This document shows, piece by piece, positions 3,082 through 63,807 of a stretch of DNA of 64,000 nt. Source of the DNA: Dendronephthya gigantea (taxonomy: Eukaryota); the NCBI RefSeq assembly GCF_004324835.1, contig NW_021163311.1:74208-138207 (forward strand), in the 5' to 3' direction. Below the pieces are notes generated by a model, which searched no databases, had not been told where the DNA came from, and worked only from the letters and a program-made list of their open reading frames with translations. The translations under genes and the position numbers were made by a program. Within the stretch, counting starts at the first letter, position 1. Each line of letters starts with the position of its first letter.

Positions 3082-3386
3082 TTATACCTTAGTTTCACGT
3101 TCAAATCGGTCAAATGTAGTCAAAAGCCTTGGAATCACCTCTTCCCAATTGTTGCCCAACTGTAGTCGGGTGCACAGGCACGGTACCGAGCGGTCAGCGG
3201 TCTTTAGCCACGTCATCGCCTTGGCAACCTTCGCGTGCAACTCGGTATCAGACCCCACGGGGCACTCCGGCGTTTTGAACGGCGGGATAAGTTGAATTTG
3301 AAAAGCAAAGCATTTCTTTTGACGTAAATATGCCAAAACCAAAAGGGTCGCTACCATTTTGCAAAGGGTTTTGAACGTTCGAACAC
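3082..3386 (-). CDS. PARP4: PARP4-like conserved C-terminal exon (GVRTFKTLCKMVATLLVLAYLRQKK...AKAMTWLKTADRSVPCLCTRLQLGNNWEEVIPRLL...)
   Basis: Acceptor ctgaaaag|GT joins in phase 1 to the exon at 3782, giving …SKSLGVRTFK…. It matches PARP4 QSLGVKGRECLLDLIATMLVLQFIRTR...AIKQASEWVRRTEGQYPSICPRLELGNDWDSATKQLL. The stop is at 3082-3084, although an AAG|gtataa donor just before it could extend the CDS. Confidence 0.65.
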
Positions 3387-3781
3387 CTTTTCAGACAATA
3401 AAATACAAAGCTTTTAATGGATTTTAATGAAAATGGAGCATTTTAATTGGTTCTTTAGCGGTCGGTAACCCCCGATATTGACCGCTAAGTTTTGGCGGGA
3501 AAAAAATGAAATTTAGAGTTTTGAGTGATTTTCTTCAAAAACTCTGTTTGGGAGAATGGTTTAGAAAGTTTAAAATGTCTTAAAGGGAAGAGGAATTAAT
3601 TGGTTTTTATTATCCAGAAAAAGATGATGTTTTGGGCATCGTAAACATTTGAATAGCTAAAAAAATTCACGAGATTGGGCTGGTTCTCGGCTTTTAGCTA
3701 GCGATCCAGAACTTGCAAACAGAAGGATTATTTGGGTTGGATCAAGGCGAAGATATGCACTTTACTTATTAGCAAACTTAC

Positions 3782-3884
3782 CAAGCGATTTCGAACCACA
3801 ATCAACCAACATTTTCTCAATTTCCGAAGCATTTACCGGAAGGTAATTATCTAGACGAGAATCTGTTAAATTCCAAGAACCATT
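3782..3884 (-). CDS. PARP4: PARP4-like exon from the C-terminal MVP-interaction region (NGSWNLTDSRLDNYLPVNASEIEKMLVDCGSKSL-)
   Basis: Acceptor cttctcctag and donor CTTG|gtaagttt (phase 1). It matches PARP4 EDGFWKLTPELGLILNL...LKQKGIQSLG. Confidence 0.6.
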
Positions 3885-5267
3885 CTAGGAGAAGTTCCGG
3901 AAAGATGTAAGTATACATCCAGTATGTATATATATCAGTCTAGAGTTAGTTTAGTTTAGGTTTCCTCCTGTAGTAACACTGGATCAATAAGAGATGATCC
4001 TTACTGGACCTCTAGGAAGAACAGTTTAGTCATATATTACCTCATCTTGTAGCAGAAATACTAGGACTGGTGGTTTCATATTTTTTCGTGCCGACAGCAT
4101 TTCTGGAATGTTGATCGAATGTGTGATCCTCCCTGCTCTTTTGCGTAATCTCTCCTTCTCTATTTGCAAAAGTAATAATCATTTCAACTTATATTTTGCT
4201 AAACAAGAACAGAAGTTAAACGCTAGCCTTCTAAATAGTTTACTTTTGGGCAATTTTTACATCAGGGGCAGTTGTTCAAAGCTAGGTGGGCGCTAACCAT
4301 GGGTTAAAATGTTAATCCAGTGTTTTATAATCCAGTGTTGATGTGCTTCTGAGCCGCTGTTCGCTTCAAAACCTTTACAAAATATGACTTCTATCGGTCA
4401 AAAAAATATTTTTAAAAAAAAGATATTCAACTTTGTAAACGACCAATAAAAATTTAATGTAAAGATTTGCTTTAACCCAGGGTCAGAGCAGTTTCGAATA
4501 ATTTCGGGGTTTCGCAGAATTGTAAAAACAGGTTGGGAAACGAACTTTTAATCGGCTCAACGTTGTAGCAATTTGATAAAATGGCATTACAATGTTGACA
4601 GATTTAATAAAGAGGATATTTTCTATGCCACGTATAATATTTGTTTAATTTCTTTTAAAATTGAGAACGTTTTGCAAACCTCAAAAACATCTAAAAAGAA
4701 TGTTTACTATTTCATCTAAAAACAACATTAAAATGAAAAGATTTCTCGGGATACGCCGAGAAGAAAATGACACTTGAATCGAAGCTACTTTTGTATTCAT
4801 CTCAGTTATAATGGTGTTGACACTTATAACATTGTTGATAGCCGCATTATATTTTGAAATAACTCTTGTCGTTTTGTGTTTTGCAATCACCAAATACGAG
4901 CGATATAGAAAGGTTTGACCAAGGTTAACCGCAGTTTTTGTAAGATTATTTCATTTATTTCTGGACAGTACTGTAATTATAGCAACTTGAGAATACTGAT
5001 GGGTGACTGTTACATGAAGTCTACATGAGTGACTGGCGCTAAATAACGCAGGCATAGGTTAGCGGGCACGACAGAGAACAGAGAAACTCGAGCAAGATAA
5101 CTTTCGATCAGTTGACATTATTTTTTCTGTTCATATTTTTGTACAAAAGTTTTTCTGTATAAATAAAAATTGTTCATCGAACACACCAATGAGAACATTC
5201 ATTGTGACGATTAGTAGATGAGTTTCGAATAATATTTTTTTCTAACAAGTGAAGAGGTATATTATAC

Positions 5268-5498
5268 CTTTTGGTTTTGAAGCGCTATAGCATCGCCTAA
5301 AGGAACCCCTTGCCATAGGCGGTGGAGAGGGTTCCCGTGACTCGATGGATCTGGGGAGCAAGGGTGGAGCGGCGGGGGATGGCGTTTCTTGTTCTTCTTG
5401 TGGTTGTTCTTTATCCGTCTGAACTTGCTGACTGCTAAGAGACAACGCTACAACGTTCTCCGAAACCCCATCTTCTTTTTTCCTCCGTTTAGGAGAAT
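5268..5498 (-). CDS. Repeated phase-1/phase-1 exon module, copy 1
   Basis: Acceptor atcagcag and donor AAAAG|gtataata. The Met-start ORFs in the track here are artefacts. Confidence 0.4.
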
Positions 5499-5987
5499 CT
5501 GCTGATTTCAATGATAAAATAGAACTAAAGCGCGCCTCACACGAGAGCTGGTAGCTGAGGTAAAGACCTCGCAAGGCTGGTAATTTGCTCAACAAGTTAG
5601 AGGCTGTTTACATGAGCCCGGTTACCCGAGATTCAAGGCAGCGTGAGAGGACTTTGATATATTGTAACAAGTCTTTATGACACGAAACAAGCACATGCAA
5701 TTGTTGTGGTGATTATACGACTGCCAGGATCATGTTATCTGCTCATTTCAATACCTCAAAATCATCTCATGCTTCGTCGAACTCGGGTAACCGGGCTCAT
5801 GAAAACAGCCCCTTACTCTCGTGTGCGGATAGTTTCCGTGCGGAATTCGCCTCGAGAGGCAAGTTTCAAGAGTTTTTCTCTGGAAATAAAAAGCGTTCTT
5901 CGTATACAGCGAAGAGAACAGTCATTGAGACGATTAGTAGATGAGTTTCGAATAAGAATTTCTTTTAACAAGCGGAGAAGTATATAC

Positions 5988-6197
5988 CTTTTGTTTTAAC
6001 AGCCCCGAGGCTTTGCCTAGGGGAGCTGACGCTAAACGGTGACTTGGAGAGCAAGGGTGGAGCGGCCCCGGCAGGCATTTCTTGTTCTTTTTGTGGTTGC
6101 TGTCTATGCGTCTGAACTTGCTGAATACCAAACGAAAATCCTCCAAAGGTATCCTTCACCGAGACCTCATCTTCTTTTTTCTTCTGTTCAGGAGAGT
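5988..6197 (-). CDS. Repeated phase-1/phase-1 exon module, copy 2 (…TDSPEQKKKEDEVSVKDTFGGFSFGIQQVQTHRQQPQKEQEMPAGAAPPLLSKSPFSVSSPRQSLGAVKTK)
   Basis: Acceptor atcaacag|AC and donor AAAAG|gtatatac. Length is 2+207+1 nt. Confidence 0.4.
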
Positions 6198-7164
6198 CTG
6201 TTGATTTCAATGATAAAATAGAACTAAAGCGCTAAAGAATTCATATTAGGCACGGGAAATTCATCTTAGACAGGAAAGTTGATTGTAAAAACGCGTCTTA
6301 ATATGACTTGGAATGGATATAAGATTTACACGTGTGATGGGTCGGGTAATGCTAAAAAGAGTATCGTGATTATTACGATAATAATTTTGTTTATTTTCTC
6401 AGTTAAGCGCGCCTCACACGAGAGCTGCTAGCTGAGGTAAAGACCTCGCGAGGCTGTTAGCTCAGCAAGTTACTCTCGTGTGCGGATAGTTTTTCGTCAG
6501 GAATTCGTCTACATAGTTCGTCTACATAGTTCGTCGTGTGTTTTTACTCAGACGAAAGATCTGTCAGATGGATCATTTGTCCAGACGGATAATCCGTCTT
6601 TAGTATCATTTGGGCCAACATTTAATCGACTGTTATAGCACTGTCAAGTTGCGGTTCGGTTGCGGTCCACCGATAGGGAAAAAATACGACCGCGGTTGCC
6701 ATTCGCTTCTGAACGGAATGCTATGGACTGCTGAGAACAACAACACAATAACATCAAATCCTAAGAAATGTCTGTCAGACCGAGTTAGGCTGAGGTTTAA
6801 CGTCCGTCTCACCGCGGTTCGACCTCGGTTCAACTGCGATCAGACCGAGGTTTCACCAAGGTTCTGGACAGTACTATAATTATAGCAACTTGAGAATACT
6901 GATGAGTGACTGTTACATGAAGTTTACATAAGTGACTAACAATAACGCAGGCACAGGTCAGCGGGCTCGACGGAGCAGATGGAAACTCGAGCGAGATAAC
7001 TTCGGATCAGTTGTCAAATAATTTTTTGTGTTCATATTTTTGTACAAGAGTTTTTCTCTAGAAATAAAAAGAGTTCTTCGTACACAACAATGAGAATATT
7101 CATTGTGACGATTAGTACATGAGTTTCGAATAATATTTTTTCTAACAAGTGGAGAGGTATATAC

Positions 7165-7395
7165 CTTTTGGTTCTGAAGCGCTATAGCATCGCGTAAAGG
7201 AACTGCTTGCCACAGGCGGTGGAGGGGGATTCCGTGACCTGATGGATCTGCGGAGCAAGGGTGGAGCGGCGGGGGGTGGCGTTTCTTGTTCTTCTTGTGT
7301 TTGTTGTTTATCCGTCTGAACTTGCTGACTACCAAGAGACAACGCTACAACGTTCTCCGAAACCTCATCTTCTCTTTTCCTCCGTTCAGGAAAAT
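7165..7395 (-). CDS. Repeated phase-1/phase-1 exon module, copy 3
   Basis: Acceptor atcaacag and donor AAAAG|gtatatac. Confidence 0.4.
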
Positions 7396-8953
7396 CTGTT
7401 GATTTCAATGATAAAATAGAACTAAAGCGCGCCTCACACGAGAGCTGGTAGCTGAGGTAAAGACCTCGCGAGGCTGTTAGCTCAGCAAGTTACTCTCGTG
7501 TGCGGATAGTTTTTCGTGAGGAATTCGCCTCGAGAGGCAAGTTTCTATCGTGTGCGGATAGTTTTCAGGCCGCTGAGTTAACTGCCTCGCGAGGTCGTTA
7601 GCTCAGCTGATAGCTCTCTTGTGCGGCTTGCTTAAGGCTATGTGGTGCATGCGAGCGTCATTTTCGAGCGTTTTTTTAACAGTATTTACCCAGTGAGCCT
7701 ACATCGCCAAAGCGGTTTTCAGTATTCTTACCAGGTAAGGAAGGCTTGAAGTAGCTAGGTCTTCGTAGATTCTTTGGAACCTCATCTCGTATTAAGTGAG
7801 GTTTTGCTTCTCCATCAAAACCACGCCTGGAATCAGATTCCATTTCTATAAAATATGACAAAACGATGATGTGCATTGAATGCCCTAAATTCATAACTGC
7901 ATATTTCAGATTTCCATGCACGTCTTTCCATGAACATCGACGCTACATTAAGAAGCAGAATAGGCTACTTTGAGAATATCACTCTAACATCAGACCCAAC
8001 AACTTGTATACATTAAATTGATACGATGTATAATATAGGAACAGATTTTTCACCTGAATTCATATTTAGACATTTGGGACAAAAGGCTACCATTGTTAGG
8101 AGCTGTTTATATTGGAGCCAGGCTGGCCCGGCCGTGAAAACTATTCAAGTCTCTTAAAAGTTTAGAAAAACATCGGAAAGGGCGGTCGTGTGTTTCTCGA
8201 AAGATCTGTCATTATCTGCGGTTTCTTGTTGTTGGGGTTGTTTTAGTTTATGTGCTTTTGAACCACTGTTCGTTTCAACACTTTACAAAATAAGACTTCT
8301 TTCGGTCCAGAAAATATTTGTAATAAAGATATTCAACTTTGTAAACAGGCAATAAAAAAATTTAGTGCAAAGATTTGCTTTAACCCCGTTAGGGTTGGCC
8401 AAGCCGGGTTTTGAACGACCTGGCTCAGAGGATCGAACGTTGTAATGAGCAAGAGTTTTTCTCTAGAAATAACAAGTACGATCGTACTATAGTGGACCAG
8501 GAACTGCGTAACCGAGTTTAATTTCTGAACTGCATTGTATTTACAACAATGGAGAGGACAATGTATTTCTAATCGTTTGCGTTTACTTATATATAGGCTG
8601 AATATTAATGATATGTATACATTATTTGCTGCACATATAGGCACGAATTGCTTGTAACTTGCTCCAAAGGTCAAAAGTAAAAATTCGAACTCCGTCAATC
8701 GATGCGGAATATTGCTTATAGAATAATTGTGCCAAGTTTCATTCCGATCAAACAAGTAATGATAGAGCCTTAGGGTTTTTTTAAAGAGCGTAGCCCCCTA
8801 ACAACAACAACAACAACAGAAGATTAGCAGCGGTTAGGGACCACTTCCTGGTCCAAAAAGCGTTCCTCGTATACAGCGAAGAGAACATTCATTGTGACGA
8901 TTAGTAAACGAATTTCGAATAAGAATTTTTTTATCAAGTGGAGAGGTACATAC

Positions 8954-9163
8954 CTTCTGTTTTCAAAATCCCAAAGCTTCGTCTACGGTAGGCGATGCTA
9001 AACGGTGACTTGGAGAACAGGCGTGGAGCGGCGAGGGGTGGTGTTTCTTGTTCTTCTTGTGGCTGTTGTTTATCTGTCTGAACTTGCTGAATACCAAACG
9101 AAAATCCTCCAAAGGTATCGTTCTTGGACACCCCATCTTCTTCTTTCTTCTCTTCAGAAGAAT
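8954..9163 (-). CDS. Repeated phase-1/phase-1 exon module, copy 4
   Basis: Acceptor atcaacag and donor GAAG|gtatgtac. It is a P/Q/E-rich paralogue of the module at 5988-6197. Confidence 0.4.
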
Positions 9164-10379
9164 CTGTTGATTTCAATGATAAAATAAAACTAAAGCGCTA
9201 AAGAATTCATATTAGGCACGGGAAATTCATCTTAGACAGGAAAGTTGATTGTAAAAACCCGTCTTAATATGACTTGGAATGGATATAAAATTTACACGTG
9301 TGATGGGTCGGGTAATGCTAAAAAGGGTATCGTGATTATTACGATAATAATTTTGTTTATTTTCTCAGTTAAGCGCGCCTCACACGAGAGCTGGTAGCTG
9401 AGGTAAAGACCTCGCGAGGCTGTTAGCTCAGCAAGTTACTCTCGTGTGCGGATAGTTTTTCGTCAGGAATTCGTCTACACAGTTCGTCTAGATAGTTTGT
9501 CGTGTGTTTATACTCAGACGAATGAATCATCTGTCAGATGGATCATTTGTCCAGACGGATAATCCGTCTCTAGTATCATTTGGGCCAACATTTAATCGAC
9601 TGTCATAGCACTGTCCAGTTGCGGTTAGGTTGCGGTCGACCGATAAAAACCGCAGACGACCGCAAGGGAAAAAACACGATCGCGGTTGCCGTTCGCTTCC
9701 GAACGGAATGCTATGAACTGCTGAGAACAACAACACAATAAACATCCTAAGAAATGTCTGTCAGACCGAGTTAGGCTGCAGTTTAACGTCCATCTCACCA
9801 CGGTTCGACCTCGGTCTCGGCCTCGGTTCGACCGCGATCAGACCGAGGTGTGACCAAGGTTCTGGACAGTACTATAATTATAGCAACTCGAGAATACTGA
9901 TGAGTGACTGTTACATGAAGTTTACGTCAGTGACTAACAATAACGCAGGCACAGGTCAGCGGGCTCGACGGAGCACATGGAAACTCGAGCAAGATAACTT
10001 CGGATAGGTTGACATTATTTTACGTTTTCATATTTTTGTACAAGAGTTTTTCTCTTTAAATAAAAATCGTTCGTCGTACACAACAATGAGAATATTCTTT
10101 GTGACGATTAGTACATGAGTTTCAATAAAGAATTTTTTTCTAACAAGCGGAGAGGTACATACCTTTTGCTTCTGAAGCGTCATAGCATGGAATAATAGAG
10201 GAACTGGCGCTAAGGGGTGTATATATAGAGGGTGGAGAGGGTGGAGGGGAATGCCGTGACTCAACGCGCAGTGGTGAAGCGGTGGGGGATGCCATCTTGA
10301 CACTTCTCTTCGACTTGAGAGAATGCAACGATTCCAATGCTACAAATGCAAACAAAAGATGCTGTAGAAATTGTTGATG

Positions 10380-10680
10380 CAATTCGCGCTTGTGGACGCC
10401 CCATCCCCCCCTCCTGCACTTCTCGTTTCTACACCCCCTCCCCCCTCCTGCACTTCTCGTTTCTACACCCCCTCCCCCCTCCTGCACTTCTCGTTTCTAC
10501 ACCCCCTCCCCCCTCCTGCACTTCTCGTTTCTACACCCCTCCCCCCCTCCTGCACTTCTCGTTTCTACACCCCCTCCCCCCCTCCTGCACTTCTCGTTTC
10601 TACACCCCCTCCCCCCTCCTGCACTTCTCGTTTCTACACCCCCTCCCCCCCTCCTGCACTTCTCGTTTCTACAAAATTGT
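10380..10680. repeat. Minisatellite, about 9 copies of a 33-34-bp unit (cacccc(c)tcccccctcctgcacttctcgtttcta)
   Basis: Perfect to near-perfect tandem copies, which create the proline-rich artefact ORFs at 10337-10717. Confidence 0.9.
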
Positions 10681-10760
10681 TTCAGTAGATGAGTTTTTTC
10701 AATCGATTTGTAGATGAGTTTCGAATAATATTTTTTTCTAACAAGTGAAGAGGTATATAC

Positions 10761-11000
10761 CTTTTGGTTCTGAAGCGCTATAGCATCGCAGAAAGGAACT
10801 GCTTGGCATAGGCGGTAGAGGGGGATCCCGTGACCTGATGCCGGACTTGGGCGGCAAGGGTGGAGCAGCCGGGGATGGTGTTTCTTGTTCTTCTTGTGGT
10901 TTTTGTTTAGCCGTCTGAGCTTGCTCAATACCAAACGAAAATCCTCCAAAGGTATCGTTCTTGGACACCACGTCTTCTTCTTTCTTCTGTTCAGCAGAAT
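10761..11000 (-). CDS. Repeated phase-1/phase-1 exon module, copy 5 (…TDSAEQKKEEDVVSKNDTFGGFSFGIEQAQTAKQKPQEEQETPSPAAPPLPPKS…SEPK)
   Basis: Acceptor atcaacag and donor AAAAG|gtatatac. The exon and about 1.5 kb of flanking intron are tandemly repeated. I read it as the PARP4 low-complexity region. Confidence 0.4.
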
Positions 11001-11657
11001 CTGTTGATTTCAATGATAAAATAGAACTAAAGCGCTAAGAATTCATATTAGGCACGGGAAATTCATCTTAGACAGGAAAGTTGATTGTAAAAACCCGTCT
11101 TAATATGACTTGGAATGGATATAAAATTTACACGTGTGATGGGTCGGGTAATGCTAAAAAGGGTATCGTGATTATTACGATAATAATTTTGTTTATTTTC
11201 TCAGTTAAGCGCGCCTCACACGAGAGCTGGTAGCTGAGGTAAAGACCTCGCGAGGCTGTTAGCTCAGCAAGTTACTCTCGTGTGCGGATAGTTTTTTCGT
11301 GAGGAATTCGCCTCGAGAGGCAAGTTTCTATCGTGTGCGGATAGTTTTCAGGCTGAGTTAACTGCCTCGCGAGGTCGTTAGCTCAGCTGATAGCTCTCTT
11401 GTGCGGCGGGCTTAAGGCTACATGCGGTGCACGCTAGCTATAGCGTCATTTTCGAGCGATTTCAATATTCTTACCAGGTAAGGAGGACCTGCCGTAGGCA
11501 GAACTTCGCGAACGCGGTATTAGAACCTCATCTCTTATTGAGTGAGATATTTCTCCACCACCAAAAGTCTGTCTCAAATCAGGTACGATTTCTATAAAAT
11601 ACAACAAAACGATGATGTGTATTAATAATGCTCTAAATTAAAAACTGAATATTTCAG

Positions 11658-11896
11658 GGGCCGGTTGTATCAAGCCCGTTTAGCTTAAACGGTGGATAAG
11701 TTTAAAATAGAAAGCAATTCTATCGTTTTATTCAAGAAGCAAACTAAATGTTTTTAACCTTAATACAAAGATACTGTTTACAACTACATATTCAGTGCAT
11801 AATATTCAAGTTGACTCATTCAAGAGAGATGTAAGAGTGTTATTTAATTTTGACTTATCCACCGCTCAAACTCGTTTCGAACATGCACAACCGGAC
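11658..11896. mobile_element. MITE family A (about 235 bp; 42-bp TIR ggccggttgtatcaagcccgtttagcttaaacggtggataag)
   Basis: Long TIRs. Further copies are at 12428-12679, 34262-34500, 37861-38103, 53803-54040 and 54664-54902. Variant copies are at 49303-49548 and 49549-49735. Confidence 0.7.
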
Positions 11897-11982
11897 CTTG
11901 GTATATTTGATGGCCCCTTCACACATATTTTAGGGCTACACCCTCCCCCCCCGGTTTAAGTCAAACTTTTCAAGCTTCTTAC

Positions 11983-12095
11983 CAAATGTCGGAGCGATCC
12001 TAGAGCTCGGAACAGGGGGTGGGAGCGATGCTACACCTTCTTCTTTCGCACCACGAGATGGAACACCTCGTCTCAAAGATTTTTTGGACTTTATC
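11983..12095 (-). CDS. Putative phase-1 exon (…RRGVPSRGAKEEGVASLPPPVPSSRIAPTFG)
   Basis: Donor TTTG|gtaagaagcttg. The acceptor is not fixed. This is the second copy of an approximately 1-kb duplicated segment (11930-12360 and 12990-13430). Confidence 0.3.
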
Positions 12096-13041
12096 TTTCC
12101 GAGGAGAGAAGCAAGTTTTAATTTTGCTTGTGGATCATCTACCACTAGAAAGAAATATGGTGTAGAAATTCTTTGACAACAAAGCAAAAGTAGTTCATGG
12201 TTGACATGTATCGTATTTAGATCATACAGTTCCAGAATAACATCGGTGGTAAACCGCATAATATGGTAAACATACCATCATCAAAGCACATATCATCGCC
12301 TTCACTTTTATCATCATCATCATGTAAATCTGGGAAGAACAATTTGGAATTTCGAGAATCCACCTGACCTTATTTATGCCTCACTATATCACCTGAGTCA
12401 CTATTGATAGTTTCCGAGAACTTTCTTTGCAAGTCCTGGGGCCGGTTGTATCAAGCCCGTTTAGCTTAAACGGTGGATAAGTTCAAAATAGAAAGCAAGT
12501 TTATCGTTTTACTCAACAAGCAAACTAAATGTTTTCAACCTTAATACAAAGATACTGTTTACAACTACATATTCAGTGCATAATATTCAAGTTGACTCAT
12601 TCAAGAGAGATGTAAGAGTGTTATTTCATTTTGACTTATCCGCCGTTTAAGCTAAACGGGCTTGATACAACTGGCCCCAGATTTCCACGTCCTGTTTTCC
12701 ACCAGGCGAATTTATTCGCGTGACGCGAAGCGATATCTGAAATCGGGTTATTTGATTGCTTTGCGAAAAAAATCGCCGCGAAAAAGTAGAAACGCTTCTT
12801 AAGGCGGATTTCCACTTACAGCGAAATCGTTCGCTAGCGAAATATTTGCATATTTCCTTTTGAATTGAGAACAGTCAAGTCGAACTAATTTATTTATGCT
12901 GTTAAAATTCAAAAGAAAACATGCAAATATTTCGCTGGCGAACGATTTCGCTGTAAGTGGAAATCGGCCTTTACTTTTTATATGTTCGCGCGAAAGGGCT
13001 AACACCCCCCCGGTTTAAGTCAAACTTTTCAAGCTTCTTAC

Positions 13042-13160
13042 CTAATGTCTGTGCGTTCGTAGAGCTCGGAACAGGGGGAGGAGGGCGTGGTGGCGATGCT
13101 ACACCTTCTTCTTTAGCACTACGAGATGGAACACCTCGTCTCAAAGATTTTTTGGACCTT
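13042..13160 (-). CDS. Putative phase-1 exon (…RRGVPSRSAKEEGVASPPRPPPPVPSSTNAQTLG)
   Basis: Open minus-strand frame ending in donor TTAG|gtaagaagcttgaaaag. It is a paralogue of the exon at 11983-12095, and the donor flank is also shared with the micro-exon units. Confidence 0.3.
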
Positions 13161-13444
13161 AATTTTGCTCGTGGATCATCTACCAGTAAAAAGAAAGATG
13201 GTGAAGAAATTCTTTGATAACAAAGCAAAAGTAGTTCATGGTTGACATGTATCGTATTTAGACCATACAGTTCCAGAATAACATCGGTGGTAAACTGCAT
13301 AATATGGTTAACATACCATCATCACTGAATAATCCAAAGTCCATATCCTCGGCTTTACTTTCATCATTATCATCATGTAAATCTGAGAAGAACAATTTGG
13401 AATTTTGAGAATCCACCTGACCTTACTTATGCATCACTATATCA

Positions 13445-13683
13445 CAGAGTTGCAAAAAGAGTTCAACCTTCCTCCGGTAGGATTTCAAGTTTTGAAAACC
13501 TTCCTCAAAACGACGTTACGTCAGTGAGTCAAGTGGCAACCAGCATAAACAAATATTTGTTTTTTTAGTACATGCATGTGATCATTTAGAGTGCTCAACT
13601 TTTAACCTTCCTCACAAACCTCATTCAAAGCAAACCTTCCTCCGGGTGGTACCCGCATACCCGCTGCTTTTTTGCAACTCTGC
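13445..13683. mobile_element. hAT-like MITE (239 bp) with TIR cagagttgcaaaaa…tttttgcaactctg and 8-bp TSD ctatatca
   Basis: The TSD is at 13437-13444 and 13684-13691. The corresponding empty site is visible in the paralogous sequence at about 12405 (cactatatcacctgagtc). Confidence 0.7.
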
Positions 13684-13892
13684 TATATCACCTGAGTCAC
13701 TATTGATAGTCTCCGAGAATTTTCTTGCAATTCCAGGGGCGTAGCCAAACGGGGAATGGGGTGTTCGGACTTTCTCCCCCCTGTTGTAATTTTCGTCTAG
13801 TAACATGTAGAGCTTAGTATACTTAATGGTTGCCCCCTGTTAATCTTAGGCTGCTCCGCCTCTGTTTAAGTGAAACTTTTCAAGCTTCGTAC

Positions 13893-13952
13893 CTGGTGAG
13901 AATGTGTTCATAACTGGAAATTCAGTACTCAAAGATCGTCCGCTTGGTGCCC
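13893..13952 (-). CDS. Example 60-nt phase-1/phase-1 micro-exon (GAPSGRSLSTEFPVMNTFSPG) from the repeated exon array, probably the PARP4 disordered region
   Basis: tttctttttag|…CCAG|gtacgaagc on the minus strand. The same exon, with variants, recurs about every 0.5 kb through 13.9-16.4 kb. Confidence 0.4.
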
Positions 13953-14068
13953 CTAAAAAGAAAAATGATGTGGAAATACAATAATCAAGAGTGAATATGG
14001 AGACAGAAACACAATAATTAAGAGTGGATATGGAGAGTTAAATTTTTCAGTTTCATTGCAAGCCTCAC

Positions 14069-14110
14069 CTAGATCTGGAGGCAAATCATCAAGTTCTTCA
14101 ACATCATGTC
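14069..14110 (-). CDS. Example 42-nt phase-1/phase-1 micro-exon (HDVEELDDLPPDLG) from the repeated exon array
   Basis: cacag|GACATGATG…CTAG|gtgaggc on the minus strand. It recurs at about 15145 with identical sequence. Confidence 0.4.
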   Translation of the reverse strand, partial: DMMLKNLMICLQI

Positions 14111-16926
14111 CTGTGCATAACAAAATGAAAATAACAAATGAATAAACCGAAAGCAGATAATAATTTAGATATACTCATAAGCTAGACACCGTGGATTTTA
14201 GTAAGAGTTGATTTCATAAGTATCATTTAAATGATTTTAAACTTTTAATTGCGTTTACATACGCACAAAAAACACGAAAGTGGAAAACAACCCTTAACCT
14301 ACAAGCTAATTTACAAAGATTTCGTACTGTCTTGCTTCAAAGCATGAAATTTAAATTCTTGCAAGTTCAGGGGCGTAGCCAAACGGGAAATGGGGTGTTC
14401 TTAAGTGAAACTTTTCAAGCTTCTTACCTGTTGAGAATGTGTTTATAATTGGAAATCTAGGACTTAAAGAACTTTCCCTTGGTGGCACTAAAAGAAAAAT
14501 GATGTGGAAATACAATAATCAAGAGTGAATATGGAGACTGAAATTCTTTAGTTTCATTGCAAGCCTCACCTATATCATAAATATCTTCAAAATCATGTCC
14601 TGTGTATAACGAAGTGAAAATAACAAATAAATAAACCGAAAGCAGATAATAGTTTAGATATACTCATAAGCTAGACACCGTGGAAATTGGTAAGAGTTGA
14701 TTTCATAAGTATCATTTAAATGATTTTAAACTTTTACGTGCGTTTAGGTACGTATAAAAAACACGAAAGTGGAAAACAGCCCTTAAGCTACAAGCTAATT
14801 TACAAAGATTTCGTACTGTTTTGCTTCAAAGCATGAAATTTAAATTCTCGCAAGTCCAGGGGCGTAGCCAAACGGGAAATGGGGTGTTTTTAAGTGAAAC
14901 TTTTCAAGCTTCTTACCTGTTGAGAATGTGTTCATAATTGGAAATCCAGGACTTAAAGAACGTTCCTTTGGTGGCACTAAAAAGAAAAATGATGTGGAAA
15001 TACAATAATCAAGAGTGAATATGGAGACAGAAACACAATAATTAAGAGTGGATATGGAGACAGAAATACAATAATCAAGAGTGAATATGGAGAGTTAAAT
15101 TTTTCAGTTTCATTGCAAGCCTCACCTAGATCTGGAGGCAAATCATCAAGTTCTTCAACATCATGTCCTGTGCATAACAAAATGAAAATAACAAATGAAT
15201 AAACCGAAAGCAGATAATAATTTAGATATACTCATAAGCTAGACACCGTGGATTTTAGTAAGAGTTGATTTCATAAGTATCATTTAAATGATTTTAAACT
15301 TTTAATTGCGTTTACATACGCACAAAAAACACGAAAGTGGAAAACAACCCTTAACCTACAAGCTAATTTACAAAGATTTCGTACTGTCTTGCTTCAAAGC
15401 ATGAAATTTAAATTCTTGCAAGTTCAGGGGCGTAGCCAAACGGGAAATGGGGTGTTCTTAAGTGAAACTTTTCAAGCTTCTTACCTGTTGAGAATGTGTT
15501 TATAATTGGAAATCTAGGACTTAAAGAACTTTCCCTTGGTGGCACTAAAAAGAAAAATGATGTGGAAATACAATAATCAAGAGTGAATATGGAGACTGAA
15601 ATTCTTTAGTTTCATTGCAAGCCTCACCTATATCATAAATATCTTCAAAATCATGTCCTGTGTATAACGAAGTGAAAATAACAAATAAATAAACCGAAAG
15701 CAGATAATAGTTTAGATATACTCATAAGCTAGACACCGTGGAAATTGGTAAGAGTTGATTTCATAAGTATCATTTAAATGATTTTAAACTTTTACGTGCG
15801 TTTAGGTACGTATAAAAAACACGAAAGTGGAAAACAGCCCTTAAGCTACAAGCTAATTTACAAAGATTTCGTACTGTTTTGCTTCAAAGCATGAAATTTA
15901 AATTCTCGCAAGTCCAGGGGCGTAGCCAAACGGGAAATGGGGTGTTTTTAAGTGAAACTTTTCAAGCTTCTTACCTGTTGAGAATGTGTTCATAATTGGA
16001 AATCCAGGACTTAAAGAACGTTCCTTTGGTGGCACTAAAAAGAAAAATGATGTGGAAATACAATAATCAAGAGTGAATATGGAGACAGAAATACAAGAAT
16101 CAAGAGTGGATATGGAGAGTTAAATTTTTCAGTTTCATTGCAAGCCTCACTTGCATCATGTCTTGTGCATAACAAAGTGAAAATAACAAATAAATAAACC
16201 GAAAGCAGATAATAATTTAGATATACTCATAAACTAGACACCGTGGATTTTAGTAAGAGTTGATTTCATAAGTATCATTTAAATGATTTTAAACTTTTAA
16301 TTGCGTTTACATACGCACAAAAAACACGAAAGTGGAAGACAACCCTTAAGCCACAAGCTAATTTACAAAGATTTCGTATTGTTTTCCTTTAAAACTTGAA
16401 ATTTAAACATTCACTGAAGCTGGGAGAGTCTATGGAAAGTCTGCGAAATACAGATAATGTACAAACGTCGACAGAATATCGGTCGACTTTTACGCTACTT
16501 TTATGACTATTTTTGGACTAAATTTAATGACGGCAGAAGTCAGTGAATATGGAGACAGAAGTTCAATAATCAAGAGTGAATATGGAGAAGAATGTTGTGA
16601 ATACCCAGAGAACATTCCAAAGAACATTTCTCTACGTCCATATCAAAACAAAGCTCGCTTGACCCTCCACCGAAACCATAAATTTCTTCATCACCTGTTC
16701 ATGCCAGAGAAAAATAAGTTAATAATTTAGATTTACTGCGTATAGACAATACGTTCAGTTCTGGAGTAAAATGATAATATATATGTTATTTACCAGATTG
16801 GAGGTCCGTATAGGGAAATATTTCCCAAGGTCTCAAAAACAGCCCGAGGCTGAAGGCCGAGGGACGTTTTTGAGACCGAGGGAAATATTTCCATATACAG
16901 ACCGACTAAACTGGTAAATAATAGAT

Positions 16927-17073: not shown

Positions 17074-17385
17074 AAAAAAATAATATCCAGTGCGAAACGT
17101 TTAGATTGTCATAAATTTTCTTTACCAGAAGAATCATATAATCGAGGCGAACAATCGAAATCCGTAAATTCGGGAGAAAAATTACGCACCATCAAACCAG
17201 GATATGCAGGCTGCAAAAAATATTATTCATGTGAAATATGGCAAAGAGATAAAATATTTTTTAAGAGTTTCAGCACATTTAGGGACAGAAAATCATCCTA
17301 AGCTATATACTATAAATTCTACTGAAATACACGAATGTAGGTTAGGATTATGTTTTAGATTAGGTTCATGGTTGATGAGGGTTAG

Positions 17386-17514: not shown

Positions 17515-17814
17515 CTCATGAGCTGCACCCAAAAGTTCATCAATATCACCAGAAGACAATGATTCCTCCTCTGATTCATCCTCTGAGTCCTCTGAATCCC
17601 CCTCTGATTCCTCATCGTCCTCCTCGAACCCAATATATCCCAAGATATCCACATCTTCTCCATCAAGAATTTCGTCGATGTCCGGCGCAGTTGTCGAATC
17701 AAAGGTCTCGCCTTCTTCACGCTTTTCAATTGCGACAAAACTTGTGAACTTTGACGTGACTGAGTATTTCTTGCTTATTTCAATAATATAATCTTTCCGA
17801 GATACCTTGACCGC
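17515..17814 (-). CDS. PARP4: PARP4-like exon with an acidic tail (AVKVSRKDYIIEISKKYSVTSKFTSFVAIEKREEGETFD...EEDDEESEGDSEDSEDESEEE...GAAHE)
   Basis: Acceptor ttttccag and donor CATGAG|gtttgt, 100 codons, phase 0-0. It matches PARP4 ...LITQFTSFVAVEKRDE.... The apparent stop codon lies beyond the donor. Confidence 0.6.
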
Positions 17815-18721: not shown

Positions 18722-19016
18722 CTGGAAAAAAGAAATAAGAGATGATCCTTACTGTACCTCTAGGAAGAACAGCTTAGAACTGATAGAGCTAACCACTATA
18801 AATAAAGTTAGTTTAGTTTAGGTTTCCTCCTGTAGTAACACTTGATCAATAAGAGATGATCCTTTCTGGACCTCTAGGAAGAACAATTTAGAACTGATAG
18901 AGTTATCCAGTATAAATAAAGTTAGTTTAGTTTAGGTTTCCTCCTGTATTAACACTGGATCAGTAAGAGATGATCCTTACTGGACCTCCACGAAGAACAG
19001 TTCAGATCTCTTTACC

Positions 19017-23382: not shown

Positions 23383-23905
23383 ATAGTTTAGTTTAGGTTT
23401 CCTCCTGTAGTAACACTGGATCAATAAGAGATGATCCTTACTGGACCTCTAGGAAGAACAGTTTAGAACTGATAGAACTATCCAGTATAAATAAAGTTAG
23501 TTTAGTTTAGGTTTCCTCCTGTGGTAACACTGGATCAATAAGAGATGATCCTTACTGGACCCCAAGGAAGAACAGTTTAGAACTGATAGAGCTATCCAGT
23601 ATAAATAAAGTTAGTTTAGTTTAGGTTTCCTCCTGTAGAAACACTGGATCAATAAGAGATGATCCTTACTGGACCTCTAGGAAGAACAGTTTAGAACTGA
23701 TAGAACTATCCAGTAGAAATAAAGTTAGTTTAGTTTAGGTTTCCTCTTGTAGTAACACTGGATCAATAACAGATGATCCTTACTGGACCTCTAGGAAGAA
23801 CAGTTTAGAACTGATAGAAATATCCAGTAAAAATAAAGTTAGTTTAGTTTAGGTTTCCTCCTGTAGTAACACTGGATCAATAAGAGATGATCCTTACTGG
23901 ATCTC
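23383..23905. repeat. 118-bp satellite array (about 4.5 units), forward orientation, in a PARP4 intron
   Basis: It has the same unit as 52680-53520. Confidence 0.85.
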
Positions 23906-46190: not shown

Positions 46191-47826
46191 TCACACAACA
46201 ACAGCAGTGGGCCGCCATCTTACTTTAGACATTTCTGGAAGTTCTTCCCAAGAATACCTTTCAAAGTTGAAACCTTCAACTGACTTCAGCTTTCCTCCCT
46301 CACCCAACCCTCCCAGGACTACAATGTTGTTTTCAATAACAACTGCAGTACATCCAAACCTCTTACATCTCATTGATGGCAGCATGTGACTTTGTTCTGT
46401 CTTGACATTGTAAATGATAACTGTATCTAATGGCTTGCTATGTTTGTCAACACCACCAATAACAACAATGTTGTCTCCCCATCTCACAGTTGCTATATCA
46501 CTCACTTCATACGGCAGTGGTGACAACTGTTTCAGCTCATTCTTCTTTATATCGTACAGTACGACACTGCTGAGGTTGTCTTTGGAATAAGGAGTTGAAC
46601 TTCCACCAACTATCAACAAATTATCATCAAATATTTCCATGCTGTGACATTGTCTTGGTTTTGGCATTCGTGATAAGGTCTTCACAGTATAGGGAGGAAC
46701 AAGCTGGACTGATCTGATCAAGTCAGATAAACCATTTCTATTACCACCTCCAGAGATTATCAACTGATCATTATACAGCACACTGCTGTGGTATCTCAAC
46801 TTATCAGGTAGTTTAACAGGACAGCCATTCCAGTGTGTTGAGAGATCAGGGTTTGGGTCAATATTCATTCTAATCATATCATCAGCAATGCCAGACCAAC
46901 CACAGCCACCCTCAACTATAGTCATATGATTGTTATAAATAATTGAAGTCGCTCCATGACGTTCCTCTGGCATTGATTGTAATGGCGACCATGTTCTTTG
47001 ACGCCAGTTAAACATCTCTACAGAGCTAGTTCCTACACCTCCAGCAACAATTATATTTTCCTTATCACCACTTGGTCTATTTCTTACTTTTCTTGTGTTT
47101 TCTTCTATCTTGCCCTCCATCGTCATAAGAACGTCCTTCATTTCATCAAAAGCTCTGACCAAAGCTGTTTTTAATCCTTTGACTTCGTTGTTAACCGCTT
47201 CGTGTTTTCCTTCCATGTCTGCTTTTATATCTGCCGTATTTTTCTCGATATTCCGTGCAACATTTCGCTCCAAATTTGTTATTTTAGTTTCAATTGTTAC
47301 ATTATTCTTCCTCATGTTCTTCTCCATATTCGCCATTCTTTCCTCCATGTCTGCCAAAGTTTTCGTTATTTCTCCGCACGAGTGACACTTCAACTTTCGG
47401 AATTCACAGACTTCACTTTCATGGTGAATAAGATCACGCTTGTTGACAATTAAACCACAGCCTTGGTTTGTACAAACGACTGGTGTGTATCCACATGTAT
47501 CTTCATGGCGGTCAAGATGCTGTAATTCTACAACTTCTTGACAACCTCTGTCGATGTAAACGCAACGAATTTTCGATTCATTTAAGAAATCTTTAACCAT
47601 TCGCGGTGCTTCGATCAAAAGTCTCTACAGTCAGTTCATCAGCACACGTTGGACATGTTTGAGAATTTTCCAGATGTTTCGTAATACAACAACGGCAAAA
47701 AGAATGCTGGTATCTCCAACACATAACCGGCTCTTTCAAGACGTTGAAGCAAATGTGACAATGAAAATTTCGATCGATTTTGTTCACAAACCTTTCTTCA
47801 TCGTAGCCTTGTACATATGAAGCCAT
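46191..47826 (-). pseudogene. RING-TRAF-Kelch array copy 7, frameshifted near the RING/TRAF junction (475 aa + 77 aa pieces)
   Basis: An extra A at about 47600 (gatcaaaagtctc against gatcaaagtctc in the other copies). This could also be a sequencing error. A hAT-like MITE sits about 50 bp downstream of the stop. Confidence 0.6.
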
Positions 47827-52043: not shown

Positions 52044-52325
52044 CTAAAGAAGAATAAAAATTAGCCTCGATAGTTTGGAAATCTATTTTTAACATTTTGT
52101 GTATTTTATTATATATCTTTGGGGAAAAAATAGTCAAATTTAACCAAAATTTTGGCGATATATAAAAAGAGCGGGAAAACTTCCGTCAATTTCCGGAATG
52201 ATACGAGAACTTCCCGCGCTTTCCGATACTAACTCGCGGCCTTTGATTGGCTTAGGAACGGATTTCACTTGTTCGCTCGACCAATCAGGTTATCTGTTCG
52301 GTAACGTTAGCCAATCAGAACGTAC

Positions 52326-52646
52326 CTGACAGAGATCCTGTTTTTCTGCAATAACTCGCTTTGTAGTTATTTCTTTCACGTATTCCTTGTTGTGTGGAAC
52401 GAGCGAGTAAAACTCCTGAGAATATTTCCCCAAATTTTCATCGGAAGCATCGCCTTTGTCGAGAATTTCTCGGATAGCTTGCAATACTCCTTCAGCTTTT
52501 GAGATATCCTCCAGTTTGAGCCGTTCAACCGGGTCGCACATTAGAGAACTCAGCTCTCCAATCGCTTCAGACGAAATGCTGTGGACAAGCGCTTTCACAG
52601 GAGGAGACAGATTTTCTTTGTTCAATACTTCACTGGATATATTGTT
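52326..52646 (-). CDS. PARP4: PARP4-like exon encoding the PARP alpha-helical (regulatory) domain
   Basis: 107 codons, phase 0-0, acceptor tttcag, donor CAG|gtacgt. The motif LKLEDISKAEGVLQAIREILDKG...SQEFYSLVPH corresponds to PARP4 ISLNDVSKAEGILLLVKAALKNG...EFYRLIPH. Confidence 0.7.
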
Positions 52647-52679
52647 CTGAAATGAGTCAAAATACAAACTTAAAATCAG

Positions 52680-59229: not shown

Positions 59230-59771
59230 TCAACGTACACTCATACTAGCCCTTACAATCTGACCTTCCCATTCACCACGCCTCTTTATCCAGATTTTTG
59301 GATAAAATCCTATTTTTAAAAAGTTAACCCGAAACTTGATGTGTTCAACATAGACGTCTAGTATATCTCCTGCTGCAATCAGTGGATGTAAATACTTGCA
59401 ATGTTCAGAAGCTATATATCCAACATTTTCCCATTGAGTTCCATAATGAAGATCAATAGCAATTGCATTTTGGTCCCGAGGATTCTCCGGCTCTGGTCTT
59501 AGTCGAACATTTACTGATTCATTATATTCAAGGGCAAGATATGCCTGTTCCAGATGATGTTGGTAACTTTGTTCATGAGCAGCTCCAATGCACTTGAATG
59601 GTAGAGCATGAGTGATTTCTTCCTCATCACTTTCAACTTCTTCACTTTCATCTTCTTCACTGTCCTCATTACTAATTTGCTCATTGACAGTTTCATTTCT
59701 TTTACTTTGTTCATCCCCATTCTCCTCTCCAGCATTTTCTAGTTCAGCTAAATGCTCAAGTAGATCTCTTT
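59230..59771 (-). CDS. HIRAN-domain gene, exon 3: acidic linker followed by the HIRAN domain (…VNVRLRPEPENPRDQNAIAIDLHYGTQWENVGYIASEHCKYLHPLIAAGDILDV…)
   Basis: Acceptor ctttatag, in frame with exon 2, stop at 59230. It carries the HIRAN signature (V.L.REP.NP.D.NAI.V...G.lGYi....A..L.PLid.G). Confidence 0.6.
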
Positions 59772-59971
59772 CTATAAAGCAAAACAAAAAAATGCCCGTC
59801 TAATACTGTTATGTCTATAAATAAAAACTCACTAGTAATTTCTAAAAATAGAATTGAACGACTCTGAGATTAATTTTTACTTTAAGCATGAAACCATTTA
59901 TAACAAAGCATGTGTAAAGAAAACATTCGTAAACAGAAATGAACTATCAAAACTTTATACAGTAACTATAC

Positions 59972-62162: not shown

Positions 62163-63420
62163 CTGGATAAAGATTATGGAGGAATCAATATTCATCCAAT
62201 GTCACCACAGGAGGAAATCTGATCAATCCAGAATAGCTTTACCAGTTCTAAACTGTTCTTCCTAGAGGTCCAGTAAGGATCATCTCTTATTGATCCAGAG
62301 TTACTACAGGAGAAAACCTAAACTAAACTAACTTTATTTATACTGGATAGTTCTATCAGTTCTAAACTGTTCTTCCTAGAGGTCTGTTACATGATACATA
62401 ATATCATGTAATTAGATCGTATAATAATATAGAGTCATATACTTAGCTAGTATAAATATATATACCTTTTAGTTAGTTAACCTTATTCTCGCAAGACTTA
62501 CATGCATGAGTAAGCAAAATAGGTATAAGCATGAGCAGGCAATAGCTATGTCCACGCCTAACCGCAAGTGCGTAGCTTGGTGTCAACCACAAAGCCATGG
62601 TAGCATGCGCTACAACGCTCTGAATTGCGTAGGGGAAATTACTTGTTGTTTTGCAGTTTCTCTTAGCAAGCGTATATAAGTCGATCCGAGCGCAAATAGA
62701 TATAAGCAAGCGATTACAGCCATTACAAGATGCCATAACTGACGATGCTAATTTAAGCTGACGGCTGACCAAATGAACATTATAACATAGATGGATGTAT
62801 GATGGATTTTCAACTATGGAGCTATTCACTGTTACTCTTACCAGATAAGTTAATGTTAGGAAATAGGATATTGTTAATGTGCTTTGTAAAGTTTAAGTTG
62901 TTTATTGCTCACTATAATTCACTAAATGTTTTAAAATGCTCAACACTGTTCTCATTTTTTGTTCGTTCTCACCGGCGAACGTAACAGGTCTAGTAAGGAT
63001 TATCTCTTATTGATCCAGTGTTACTACAGGAGGAAACCTAAACTAAACTAACTTTATTTATACTGGATAGTTCTATCAGTTCTAAACTGTTCTTCCTAGA
63101 GGTCCAGTAAGGATCATCTCTTATTGATCCAGTGTTACTACAGGAGGAAACCTAAACTAAACTAACTTTAATAATTTTCTTGTATGATTGCATGGCGACT
63201 TTAGTAATTATAATAACTTGTAGGTACACCACGTAAGTATTAAATACTGCAAAGCTTTCGGTCCGTTAACCCGGACCTTCATCAGTGCAATTACTTGAAT
63301 ACACGTTTGCGCGTCACTTAAATATCATGTTAGTCGTGATTAGTTTGCTCGCGCTATTAATTAAACGGTTTCATTTAATTAAGTTCTAACTAATGCGCGC
63401 GCCCTAGACAAGTATTTGAC

Positions 63421-63807
63421 TAAGAGACACCGAAAAGAGCACGCCACGTACTATTAAGTGGCTTTCCCTCTTGGACGATAGTTTGATGTTTATAAATTTC
63501 AATAGATTCTCTCATTTTACGAGAGACAGTAAACTTATCGTTTGCTAAAATGGTAGCATCGTTCCATTTAATGCGATGATCATAAGTCCATGCATGGTGA
63601 GCTACTGCAGACTTATCCAGTTTACCTTTCTCGCAGTTCGTCTTATGTTCTTTAAGACGTATTGAGAGATTTCTACCGGTCTCTCCAATGTAAACCAAAC
63701 CACATTCACATGGAATGCGGTACACACCAGGTTTCTGTTGTTCATCGACGCCATCCTTGTGTGTGTAAAGAGCGCGAAACAATTTGTTATTGCTAGAACA
63801 TAAGACG
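63421..63807 (-). mobile_element. 5'-truncated Penelope-like element fragment carrying the GIY-YIG endonuclease domain
   Basis: ORF 63420..63782 contains GVYRIPCECGLVYIGETGRNLSIRLKEH, a GIY-YIG core of the type that follows the RT in Penelope-like retroelements. It is the left arm of an inverted duplication. Confidence 0.6.

Follow-up and report, generated by a model that had tools for sequence, protein, structure and literature searches.

The 64-kb window examined here (positions 74,208 to 138,207 of contig NW_021163311.1 of Dendronephthya gigantea; G+C ~0.36, eukaryotic) carries on its minus strand a long gene, running from ~52 kb to 3.1 kb, which on the homology of its parts is the orthologue of PARP4, or vault PARP. 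Between the last conserved ITIH-like exon of this gene and the exons for its C-terminal domain lies a tandem array of five ~0.5-kb units (13893..16436) populated by very small exons. The array is probably a set of amplified micro-exons belonging to the linker of PARP4, each copy lengthening the tether that joins the folded parts of the protein.

The PARP4 gene

The layout of the gene was recovered by tblastn, which placed PARP regulatory and catalytic exons at 52.0-50.1 kb (E down to 1.6e-31 with the PARP-VIT proteins P0021/P0025), a VIT domain at 24.2-22.7 kb, vWA/ITIH-like exons as far as 17.6 kb and a C-terminal match at 3387-3121, all on the minus strand. Exons from 24.2 to 17.6 kb align with PARP4-like proteins carrying PF13768/PF00092, and a query combining the VIT (24.2 kb), vWA-region (19.3 kb) and 17.8-kb exons returned PARP4-like matches from brachiopod, crinoid, annelid and shark at 52-61% identity. 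In Pfam, PARP_reg scored 40.1 bits (cut-off 26.8) on an open reading frame (ORF) at 52290-52667 and VIT scored 37.6 bits (cut-off 26.5); the PARP catalytic profile, set against a single exon fragment, reached 22.8 bits and fell under its cut-off of 26.7. Two hallmarks of PARP4 are present here, namely a PARP1-like regulatory region with an ART catalytic region and, downstream of these, VIT with vWA; an N-terminal BRCT domain would be expected above 52 kb. The last conserved ITIH-like exon (…KYSVTSKFTSFVAIEKREEGE…DILGYIGFEE…) lies at 17515..17814 on the minus strand and is in phase 0-0.

At the other end, three minus-strand exons within 3082..4102 (4102-4041, 3884-3782 and 3386-3085, followed by the stop codon) encode the MVP-interacting domain. 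When spliced together they match that domain of human PARP4, residues 1576-1704 (PDB 9bw6/9bw7/11jf; E 1.2e-10), in an alignment continuous over both predicted junctions, and the resulting C-terminal peptide matches a gecko PARP4 fragment (P0010) with a BLASTP E of 1e-15. Pfam returned no match to this peptide, and the domain was identified instead by sequence search of the PDB. An alternative acceptor at 3850 was rejected, as homology to shark PARP4 places the acceptor at 3884 and reveals the exon at 4102-4041.

A higher-order repeat of five units

Tandem Repeats Finder (TRF) placed an array with a period of 490 at 15063-16407, scoring 2013 over 2.7 copies and enclosing 33-nt repeats, and a repeat search recovered five in-register unit copies at spacings of 489/568/490/505 bp. 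Together with an offset scan and unit alignment, these define an array on the minus strand made up of U1 (16211-15707), U2 (15706-15217), U3 (15216-14649), U4 (14648-14160) and U5 (14159 to ~13864), with lengths of 505/490/568/489/~290 bp and an alternation of two variants; homology at the upstream edge ends at ~16436. The two unit types, A (568 bp) and B (489-490 bp), are 93.5% identical. Aligned unit by unit, U2 equals U4 except for a 1-nt indel in a T-run, U3 equals U5 as far as the acceptor of the last 60-nt exon, and U1 is 98.6% identical to U3. A preliminary description of this DNA had proposed two alternating ~0.5-kb variants within a ~1.05-kb higher-order repeat present in ~2.4 copies, and had called for self-alignment to define the higher-order unit. 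TRF, the offset scan and the unit alignments all bear that description out: ~13,965-15,045 recurs as ~15,022-16,103 at an offset of 1057/1058, giving a period of 1,057/1,058 bp, and the sole difference between the two full higher-order copies is one base in a T-run.

Directly upstream of each 60-nt exon, within the intron, stand one to three copies of a 33-nt motif, ctccatattcactcttgattattgtatttctgt. Three copies occupy 14981..15093 on the minus strand, and other sites lie at 13957-14036, 14491-14537, 15549-15595 and 16039-16118, so that copy numbers across the arrays are 2, 1, 3, 1 and 2; a lone copy is found at 16542-16588. The ends of the most recent duplication fall within these motif arrays.

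Micro-exons within the units

A scan of the minus strand for exons of any length, multiples of three or not, found five 60-nt, two 42-nt and two 30-nt exons in the array, along with one decayed copy. In the direction of transcription, these are a Pro/Ser-rich 60-nt exon of variant V1, (V)PPKERSLSPGFPIMNTFST, at 15975..16034; a 30-nt acidic exon, (G)HDFEDIYDI, at 15628..15657; a Pro/Ser-rich 60-nt exon of variant V2, (V)PPRESSLSPRFPIINTFST, at 15485..15544; and a 42-nt acidic exon, (G)HDVEELDDLPPDL, at 15126..15167. Second copies of these four follow at 14917..14976 (V1, identical to 16034-15975), 14570..14599 (30-nt acidic), 14428..14487 (V2) and 14069..14110 (42-nt acidic), and the series closes with V3, (G)APSGRSLSTEFPVMNTFSP, at 13893..13952, an older 60-nt copy that is 18% diverged from V1. 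The acidic exon of U1 survives as a 12-nt remnant (16151..16162), its acceptor changed from AG to AA at 16163 and its body cut by a 30-nt deletion, and is probably no longer an exon.

The 60-nt and 42-nt exons, with their pyrimidine-tract/AG and GT signals, had already been picked out and were found on the minus strand where they had been reported; their common phase was likewise confirmed as 1-1, matching that of the conserved exons on either side. The two 30-nt acidic exons had been missed, as had the third 60-nt variant, PPKERSLSPGFPIMNTFST, and the split first codon of the 60-nt exons, previously read as Leu, is in fact G/TG and hence Val, because the preceding exon ends in G. Since all copies descend from one ancestral unit, their shared phase counts as one observation rather than five.

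Splice signals are well kept. Acceptors read (t)ttttctttttag/ and ttgttatRcacag/ and donors CAG/gtaagaag and TAG/gtgaggct, close to the metazoan consensus, and every intact copy retains a canonical pyrimidine tract with AG and a GTRAG donor. The introns around the micro-exons are short (83-317 nt), which suits the recognition of very small exons. Predicted junctions include 15126/14976 (…CCAGATCTAG/TGCCACCAAAGG…) and 14917/14599 (…TTCTCAACAG/GACATGATTTTG…), and tryptic peptides expected across micro-exon junctions include SLSPGFPIMNTFSTGHDFEDIYDIVPPR and FPIINTFSTGHDVEELDDLPPDLVPPK. In-frame read-through past the donors (…GKKLEKFHL…) was considered and set aside: these ORFs terminate in stops and offer no alternative in-frame donor.

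A conserved donor flank and older sister exons

The first 29 nucleotides of the intron after the Pro/Ser-rich exons form a nearly fixed sequence, gtaagaagcttgaaaagtttcacttaaaa, with 26 of 29 positions invariant across copies. It occurs at 14888..14916 and again at 13864-13892, 14399-14427, 15456-15484, 15946-15974, 13013-13041 and 11954-11982, all on the minus strand; seven occurrences in all stand against none in 100 shuffles. The last two sites confirm an earlier remark that this flank is common to the exon pair at 11983 and 13042. The acceptor flank, too, is nearly invariant between the 60-nt exons and the exons at 12-13 kb, the bodies of which cannot be aligned. Conservation of the donor flank might reflect a splicing enhancer; a small hairpin that can be drawn within it folds no better than shuffled sequence (z -0.65 to +0.26).

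These flanks tie the array to longer and older exons on the same strand. One older unit comprises a 66-nt acidic exon, (D)LHDDNDESKAEDMDFGLFSDD, at 13317..13382 and a 138-nt basic/proline-rich exon, DPRAKLRSKKSLRRGVPSRSAKEEGVASPPRPPPPVPSSTNAQTL, at 13042..13179, both in phase 1-1, the latter with splice flanks in common with the 60-nt exons. Its sister unit holds a 54-nt acidic exon at 12276..12329, which differs from 13382-13317 by 12 nt in frame, and a 156-nt basic/proline-rich exon at 11983..12138, which differs from 13179-13042 by in-frame changes of 27 and 9 nt. On the upstream side, a 90-nt acidic exon in phase 1-1, DEEIYGFGGGSSELCFDMDVEKCSLECSL (16605..16694), is followed by the 33-nt motif and is an old relative of the acidic micro-exons that has lost its original donor and reads on to a later GT. 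Over 16.7-12.0 kb the two classes of exon alternate, the acidic ones with a net charge of -4 to -8 and the Pro/Ser-rich ones with a charge of 0 to +8. The exons have the marks of cassette exons: lengths of 60/30/42/66/138/54/156/90 nt, a shared phase, and homology between neighbours that covers both exon and intron.

A linker in a single phase

Within the gene, the array comes after the last ITIH-like exon (17814-17515) and before the first exon of the MVP-interacting domain (4102-4041). An 85-nt exon, PAYPGLMVRNFSPEFTDFDCSPRLYDSS, at 17126..17210 on the minus strand shifts the frame from phase 0 to phase 1 and so gives entry to a phase-1 series, from which exon 4102-4041 (phase 1 to 0) provides the exit; all of the ~23 predicted linker exons between them are in phase 1-1. 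Because entry and exit phases are set by exons that homology supports, they provide an independent check on the phase of the series, although phase continuity cannot tell which exons are used, since every linker exon is symmetric. Downstream of the array, the rest of the predicted linker (5268..11591, minus strand, phase 1-1 throughout) includes exons at 11591-11475, 11000-10761, 10339-10163, 9163-8954, 7845-7732, 7395-7165, 6197-5988 and 5498-5268. Five of these, 11000-10761, 9163-8954, 7395-7165, 6197-5988 and 5498-5268 (240/210/231/210/231 nt), form a further minus-strand, phase 1-1 family with the consensus …KKEEDxVSKNDTFGGFSFGIQQVQTDKQQPQEEQETP….

The predicted chain of 27 exons covers 3,333 nt with a terminal stop only. 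Its linker would amount to 2,563 nt (~854 aa), of which the array would supply 444 nt (148 aa), and the repetitive coding interval so predicted (~17.2 kb to 5.3 kb) is larger than the 11.9-16.4 kb first proposed. Pfam returned nothing meaningful on the linker, and by charge and hydropathy its composition as a whole plots as disordered, which that of two folded controls does not.

Several other repeats sit in the introns of this region. Within a linker intron, 10,406-10,673 holds a C-rich 34-nt tandem repeat, CCCCCCTCCTGCACTTCTCGTTTCTACACCCCCT, in 7.8 copies of 97% identity. Insertions resembling miniature inverted-repeat transposable elements (MITEs) are found at 12,436-12,680 (with a sister at 11,657-11,872), 13,439-13,688 and 12,801-12,971; the terminal inverted repeats are 52 nt long in one of them and 20 nt long in another, where TGATATAG stands on both sides, and the third is a palindrome with 66-nt arms. 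These insertions account for the differences in length between the 12-kb and 13-kb units.

Probable origin and use of the array

That the units are derived from exons and lie inside the coding linker of PARP4 is well supported by their sequence and setting. The preliminary description had taken the whole 11.9-16.4-kb interval to be one repetitive coding region, and the coding-strand PARP4 context, the phase, the in-frame indels and the flanks speak for it, with splicing a matter of prediction. Its contention that the interval is coding and not a plain satellite agrees with every test that was possible, and the conditional part is the inclusion of the young copies in mRNA. We lean towards the micro-exons being spliced into mRNA at present.

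An ancestral unit would have consisted of an acidic exon, an intron bearing the 33-nt motif, a Pro/Ser-rich exon and a 317-nt intron. An earlier duplication of this unit would have allowed divergence into the A and B variants, and duplications earlier still would have produced the exon pairs at 12-13 kb and the acidic exon at 16.7 kb. Very recently, a two-unit block of 1,058 bp would then have been doubled, and unequal crossing-over in the 33-nt motif arrays is the probable cause. The recent event ends in the motif array beside the acceptor of V3, because V3 is 18% diverged and yet its upstream intron is identical to that of U3. After duplication, one acidic exon appears to have died. Because the exons are symmetric and of the same phase, the frame stays intact whether a copy is included, adding 10-20 residues, or is skipped; taken together, the nine intact micro-exons would contribute 148 residues of alternating acidic and Pro/Ser-rich segments. 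The array would be the youngest of a few exon families in the linker, all from tandem duplication of exon plus intron, although both the duplication mechanism and the function as a tether are put forward here as the likeliest account of the pattern. Tandem duplication of cassette exons in disordered segments is itself an already known kind of event.

Frame constraint and competing explanations

One sign of constraint is on frame. Every difference in length between homologous exons is divisible by three: 12 nt between the 30-nt and 42-nt exons; 12, 27 and 9 nt between the 13-kb and 12-kb units; 78 nt between the 60-nt and 138-nt exons; 6, 3 and 30 nt within the five-copy family; and 3 nt between exons of 117 and 114 nt. 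Intron indels in the same alignments include changes of 1, 2, 4 and 5 nt. With at least 10 in-frame events among the exons, the chance probability is ~(1/3)^10, and the young array alone contributes only ~9 exon substitutions and one indel, the latter in frame. Splice flanks are far better conserved than the exon bodies between them, and by codon-usage log-odds the predicted frame is the best one in 19/19 exons.

The chief alternative is that the young copies are silent pseudo-exons in one long intron (~16.6-13.4 kb), rarely or never spliced and effectively an intronic satellite. We consider it unlikely, although a number of results weigh on its side and against working micro-exons. All nine exon substitutions that separate A from B units are nonsynonymous, and by the Nei-Gojobori method applied to paralogous exons the ratio of nonsynonymous to synonymous differences per site (pN/pS) is ~1.4 in the array region and 0.7-1.2 in the older families. 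Exons diverge no less than introns (9.3% vs 6.5% between the 13-kb and 12-kb units). Such a lack of amino-acid constraint is equally expected of neutral non-coding DNA, and a ratio (dN/dS) among paralogues that reveals no purifying selection therefore cannot prove coding. Codon usage in the unique micro-exons scores only ~1.7 standard deviations above the open-frame intronic background, and the higher-order-repeat peptide taken alone lies on, not past, the charge-hydropathy boundary for disorder. One unit has already lost its acidic exon, the identical higher-order copies are too young for selection to have tested, and exons of 30-42 nt are in general hard to recognise.

Homology searches of the linker have likewise come back empty. 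The micro-exon peptide found no match in a word-indexed protein search, in which the list of 8,000 candidates was probably flooded by poly-P/poly-D words, and a 319-aa chain of the linker found none in a full HMMER scan of 1.84 billion representative proteins, a collection without the proteins of this genome (exact look-up of four proteins of the window returned none). Exact DNA scans of JGI metagenome contigs with a 60-nt exon and with an exon of the five-copy family gave no matches in either case. The closest relative found, in the ENA metagenome contigs L001-L003, covers the PARP_reg to vWA exons, which are 68-86% identical in DNA; its homology stops before the linker, and other VIT matches are too distant.

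Set against the silence of the young copies, nine of the ten retain both canonical splice sites and strong polypyrimidine tracts, the 12-nt indel that separates their A and B acidic exons is in frame, and none of them contains a stop. The flanks, moreover, have outlasted the exon bodies over deep divergence, which is unexpected for sites that are not used, and the introns on either side are short enough (83-317 nt) for small exons to be found. The older, longer exons of the linker display the same fast, frame-preserving evolution, as does the vertebrate PARP4 linker exon (PMC4038475). Between exons 7395 and 5498 of the five-copy family there are 19 nonsynonymous changes and 1 synonymous one, a hint of diversifying change.

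A second possibility, and to our minds a rather improbable one, builds on the amplified micro-exons and makes the tether a fast-diversifying interface, as has been proposed for exon 30 of primate and bat PARP4 in host-virus conflict. Cassette micro-exons, repeatedly amplified and diverging, would then be included in differing combinations to give a range of tether isoforms, with the 29-nt donor flank as an element controlling the splicing of tiny exons.

Only slight credence is due to an artefact of assembly, in which a shorter array was mis-assembled, or haplotypes duplicated, into two identical 1,058-bp blocks. The blocks do differ by a single T-homopolymer base over ~1,060 bp, as is typical of long-read consensus error, and with copies so alike their number could be an error of assembly. 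The A and B types (6.5% apart), U1 (1.4% from U3 and marked by a 30-nt deletion not shared with it) and V3 (18% from V1) are nevertheless distinct, and therefore at least four units are real; the junctions, lying in 33-nt motif arrays of differing copy number, resemble genuine unequal exchange, and an artefact would in any case alter copy number only and not the identity of the units. An array of transposable elements or structured RNAs with chance open frames and AG/GT pairs can be all but set aside, for although the linker introns carry MITE-like elements and loose AG…GT open segments arise by chance here about once per 1-2 kb, the diagnostic motifs of the units occur nowhere else in the window, the units have no flanking terminal inverted repeats, nothing in 11-18 kb matches Rfam at gathering score, shuffled sequence folds better than the unit does (z = +1.58), and each flank of the units has its homologue in the 12-13-kb exon pairs with their open frames of 138-156 nt.

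Comparison with known linkers and exon arrays

The PARP4 linker of vertebrates is predicted to be disordered, differs greatly between species in length and sequence and evolves under positive selection; most of the human one comes from a single large exon, exon 30, covering roughly residues 1150-1570 (PMC4038475, PMC10450202). The protein is anchored to the vault wall by its C-terminus, with long disordered regions linking one folded domain to another (PMC12280208). The linker described here occupies the same position, from the ITIH-like to the MVP-interacting domain, is similarly devoid of domain homology, and has a comparable substitution pattern (dN/dS at least 1 there, pN/pS ~1.4 here). 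It differs in being divided among ~23 phase 1-1 exons in duplicated families instead of one large exon, and the two linkers share no sequence similarity. Positive selection has been shown in the vertebrate linker, whereas comparisons of paralogues and the small counts available here cannot show it.

In gene architecture a parallel is found in tropoelastin, in which all exon borders are in phase 1:1, the exons are small and of two alternating classes, and cassette-style removal is neutral to the frame (PMC12554196). The present array has the same phase, an alternation of acidic and Pro/Ser-rich exons, and a split codon that begins with G. The proteins and their functions are unrelated and without sequence similarity, and alternative splicing is documented in tropoelastin, whereas the exons here are predicted from sequence. 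The PEVK region of titin provides another parallel, with tandem small symmetric exons, disordered proline-rich and acidic segments and super-repeats, in which inclusion of exons tunes length; its exons are of ~75-84 nt, number >100 (vs nine here) and encode a molecular spring. With a higher-order satellite the array shares head-to-tail units, two alternating variants and near-identical higher-order copies, and it departs from one in having only five units, in lying within a gene on the coding strand, in carrying canonical splice sites and indels that keep the frame, and in being homologous to longer exons.

This distinction has practical consequences, as masking the 2.5-kb repeat as satellite would truncate or mis-join the PARP4 model, at a cost of up to 148 residues, or ~850 over the whole linker. 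A single hypervariable exon in vertebrates and a cnidarian mosaic of duplicating phase 1-1 exons would represent two ways of building the same linker, and in the latter it is the frame that is kept and the amino acids that are not. That pattern fits either a tether of which only the length and general character are constrained or one under diversifying pressure. Nothing about the array is unexpected in kind, and it offers a clean, datable example of the growth of an exon array, probably by unequal exchange; its interest lies in the contrast with the single-exon vertebrate linker, in constraint confined to frame and in the deeply conserved donor flank.

Other features of the window

A 114-nt unit (…ctgttcttcctagaggtccagtaaggatcatctc…) is present in 2.3 tandem copies at 18,734-18,999, adjoining exon 18724, and as single copies at ~23,400-23,450 and ~3,945-4,030. 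Because these single copies adjoin two other PARP4 exons, the unit is a dispersed intronic element.

A HIRAN domain (33 bits) is carried by an ORF at 59,230-59,787 on the minus strand, upstream of the PARP exons. Near the end of the window, on the same strand, an ORF at 63,420-63,782 carries a GIY-YIG nuclease domain (22.9 bits) and may be the remnant of a Penelope-like retroelement.

The metagenome contig L001 has its catalytic and VIT exons 570 bp apart on one strand. Past its vWA exon, PARP4 homology stops, and the remainder (6,317-10,238) holds vWA and LDL-receptor-A ORFs on the opposite strand; truncation of a paralogue, rearrangement or chimeric scaffolding could each account for this end of the contig.

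In the window, the PARP4 intron that separates the catalytic exon (~50.09 kb) from the VIT exon (~24.2 kb), the counterpart of the ~570-bp intron of L001, houses a second tandem array on the same strand. Its seven units of 3.35-3.72 kb (25,080-47,900) each contain an intronless ORF with RING, TRAF-zinc-finger, coiled-coil and Kelch regions. Four of the ORFs are full-length at 534-536 aa, and another, at 46191-47618, comes close with 475 aa. Units 2 and 6 match each other at ~100% identity, and each has a broken ORF. The family has expanded enormously, with >1,690 homologues, of which the best-named come from the gorgonian Paramuricea clavata at 70-74% identity.

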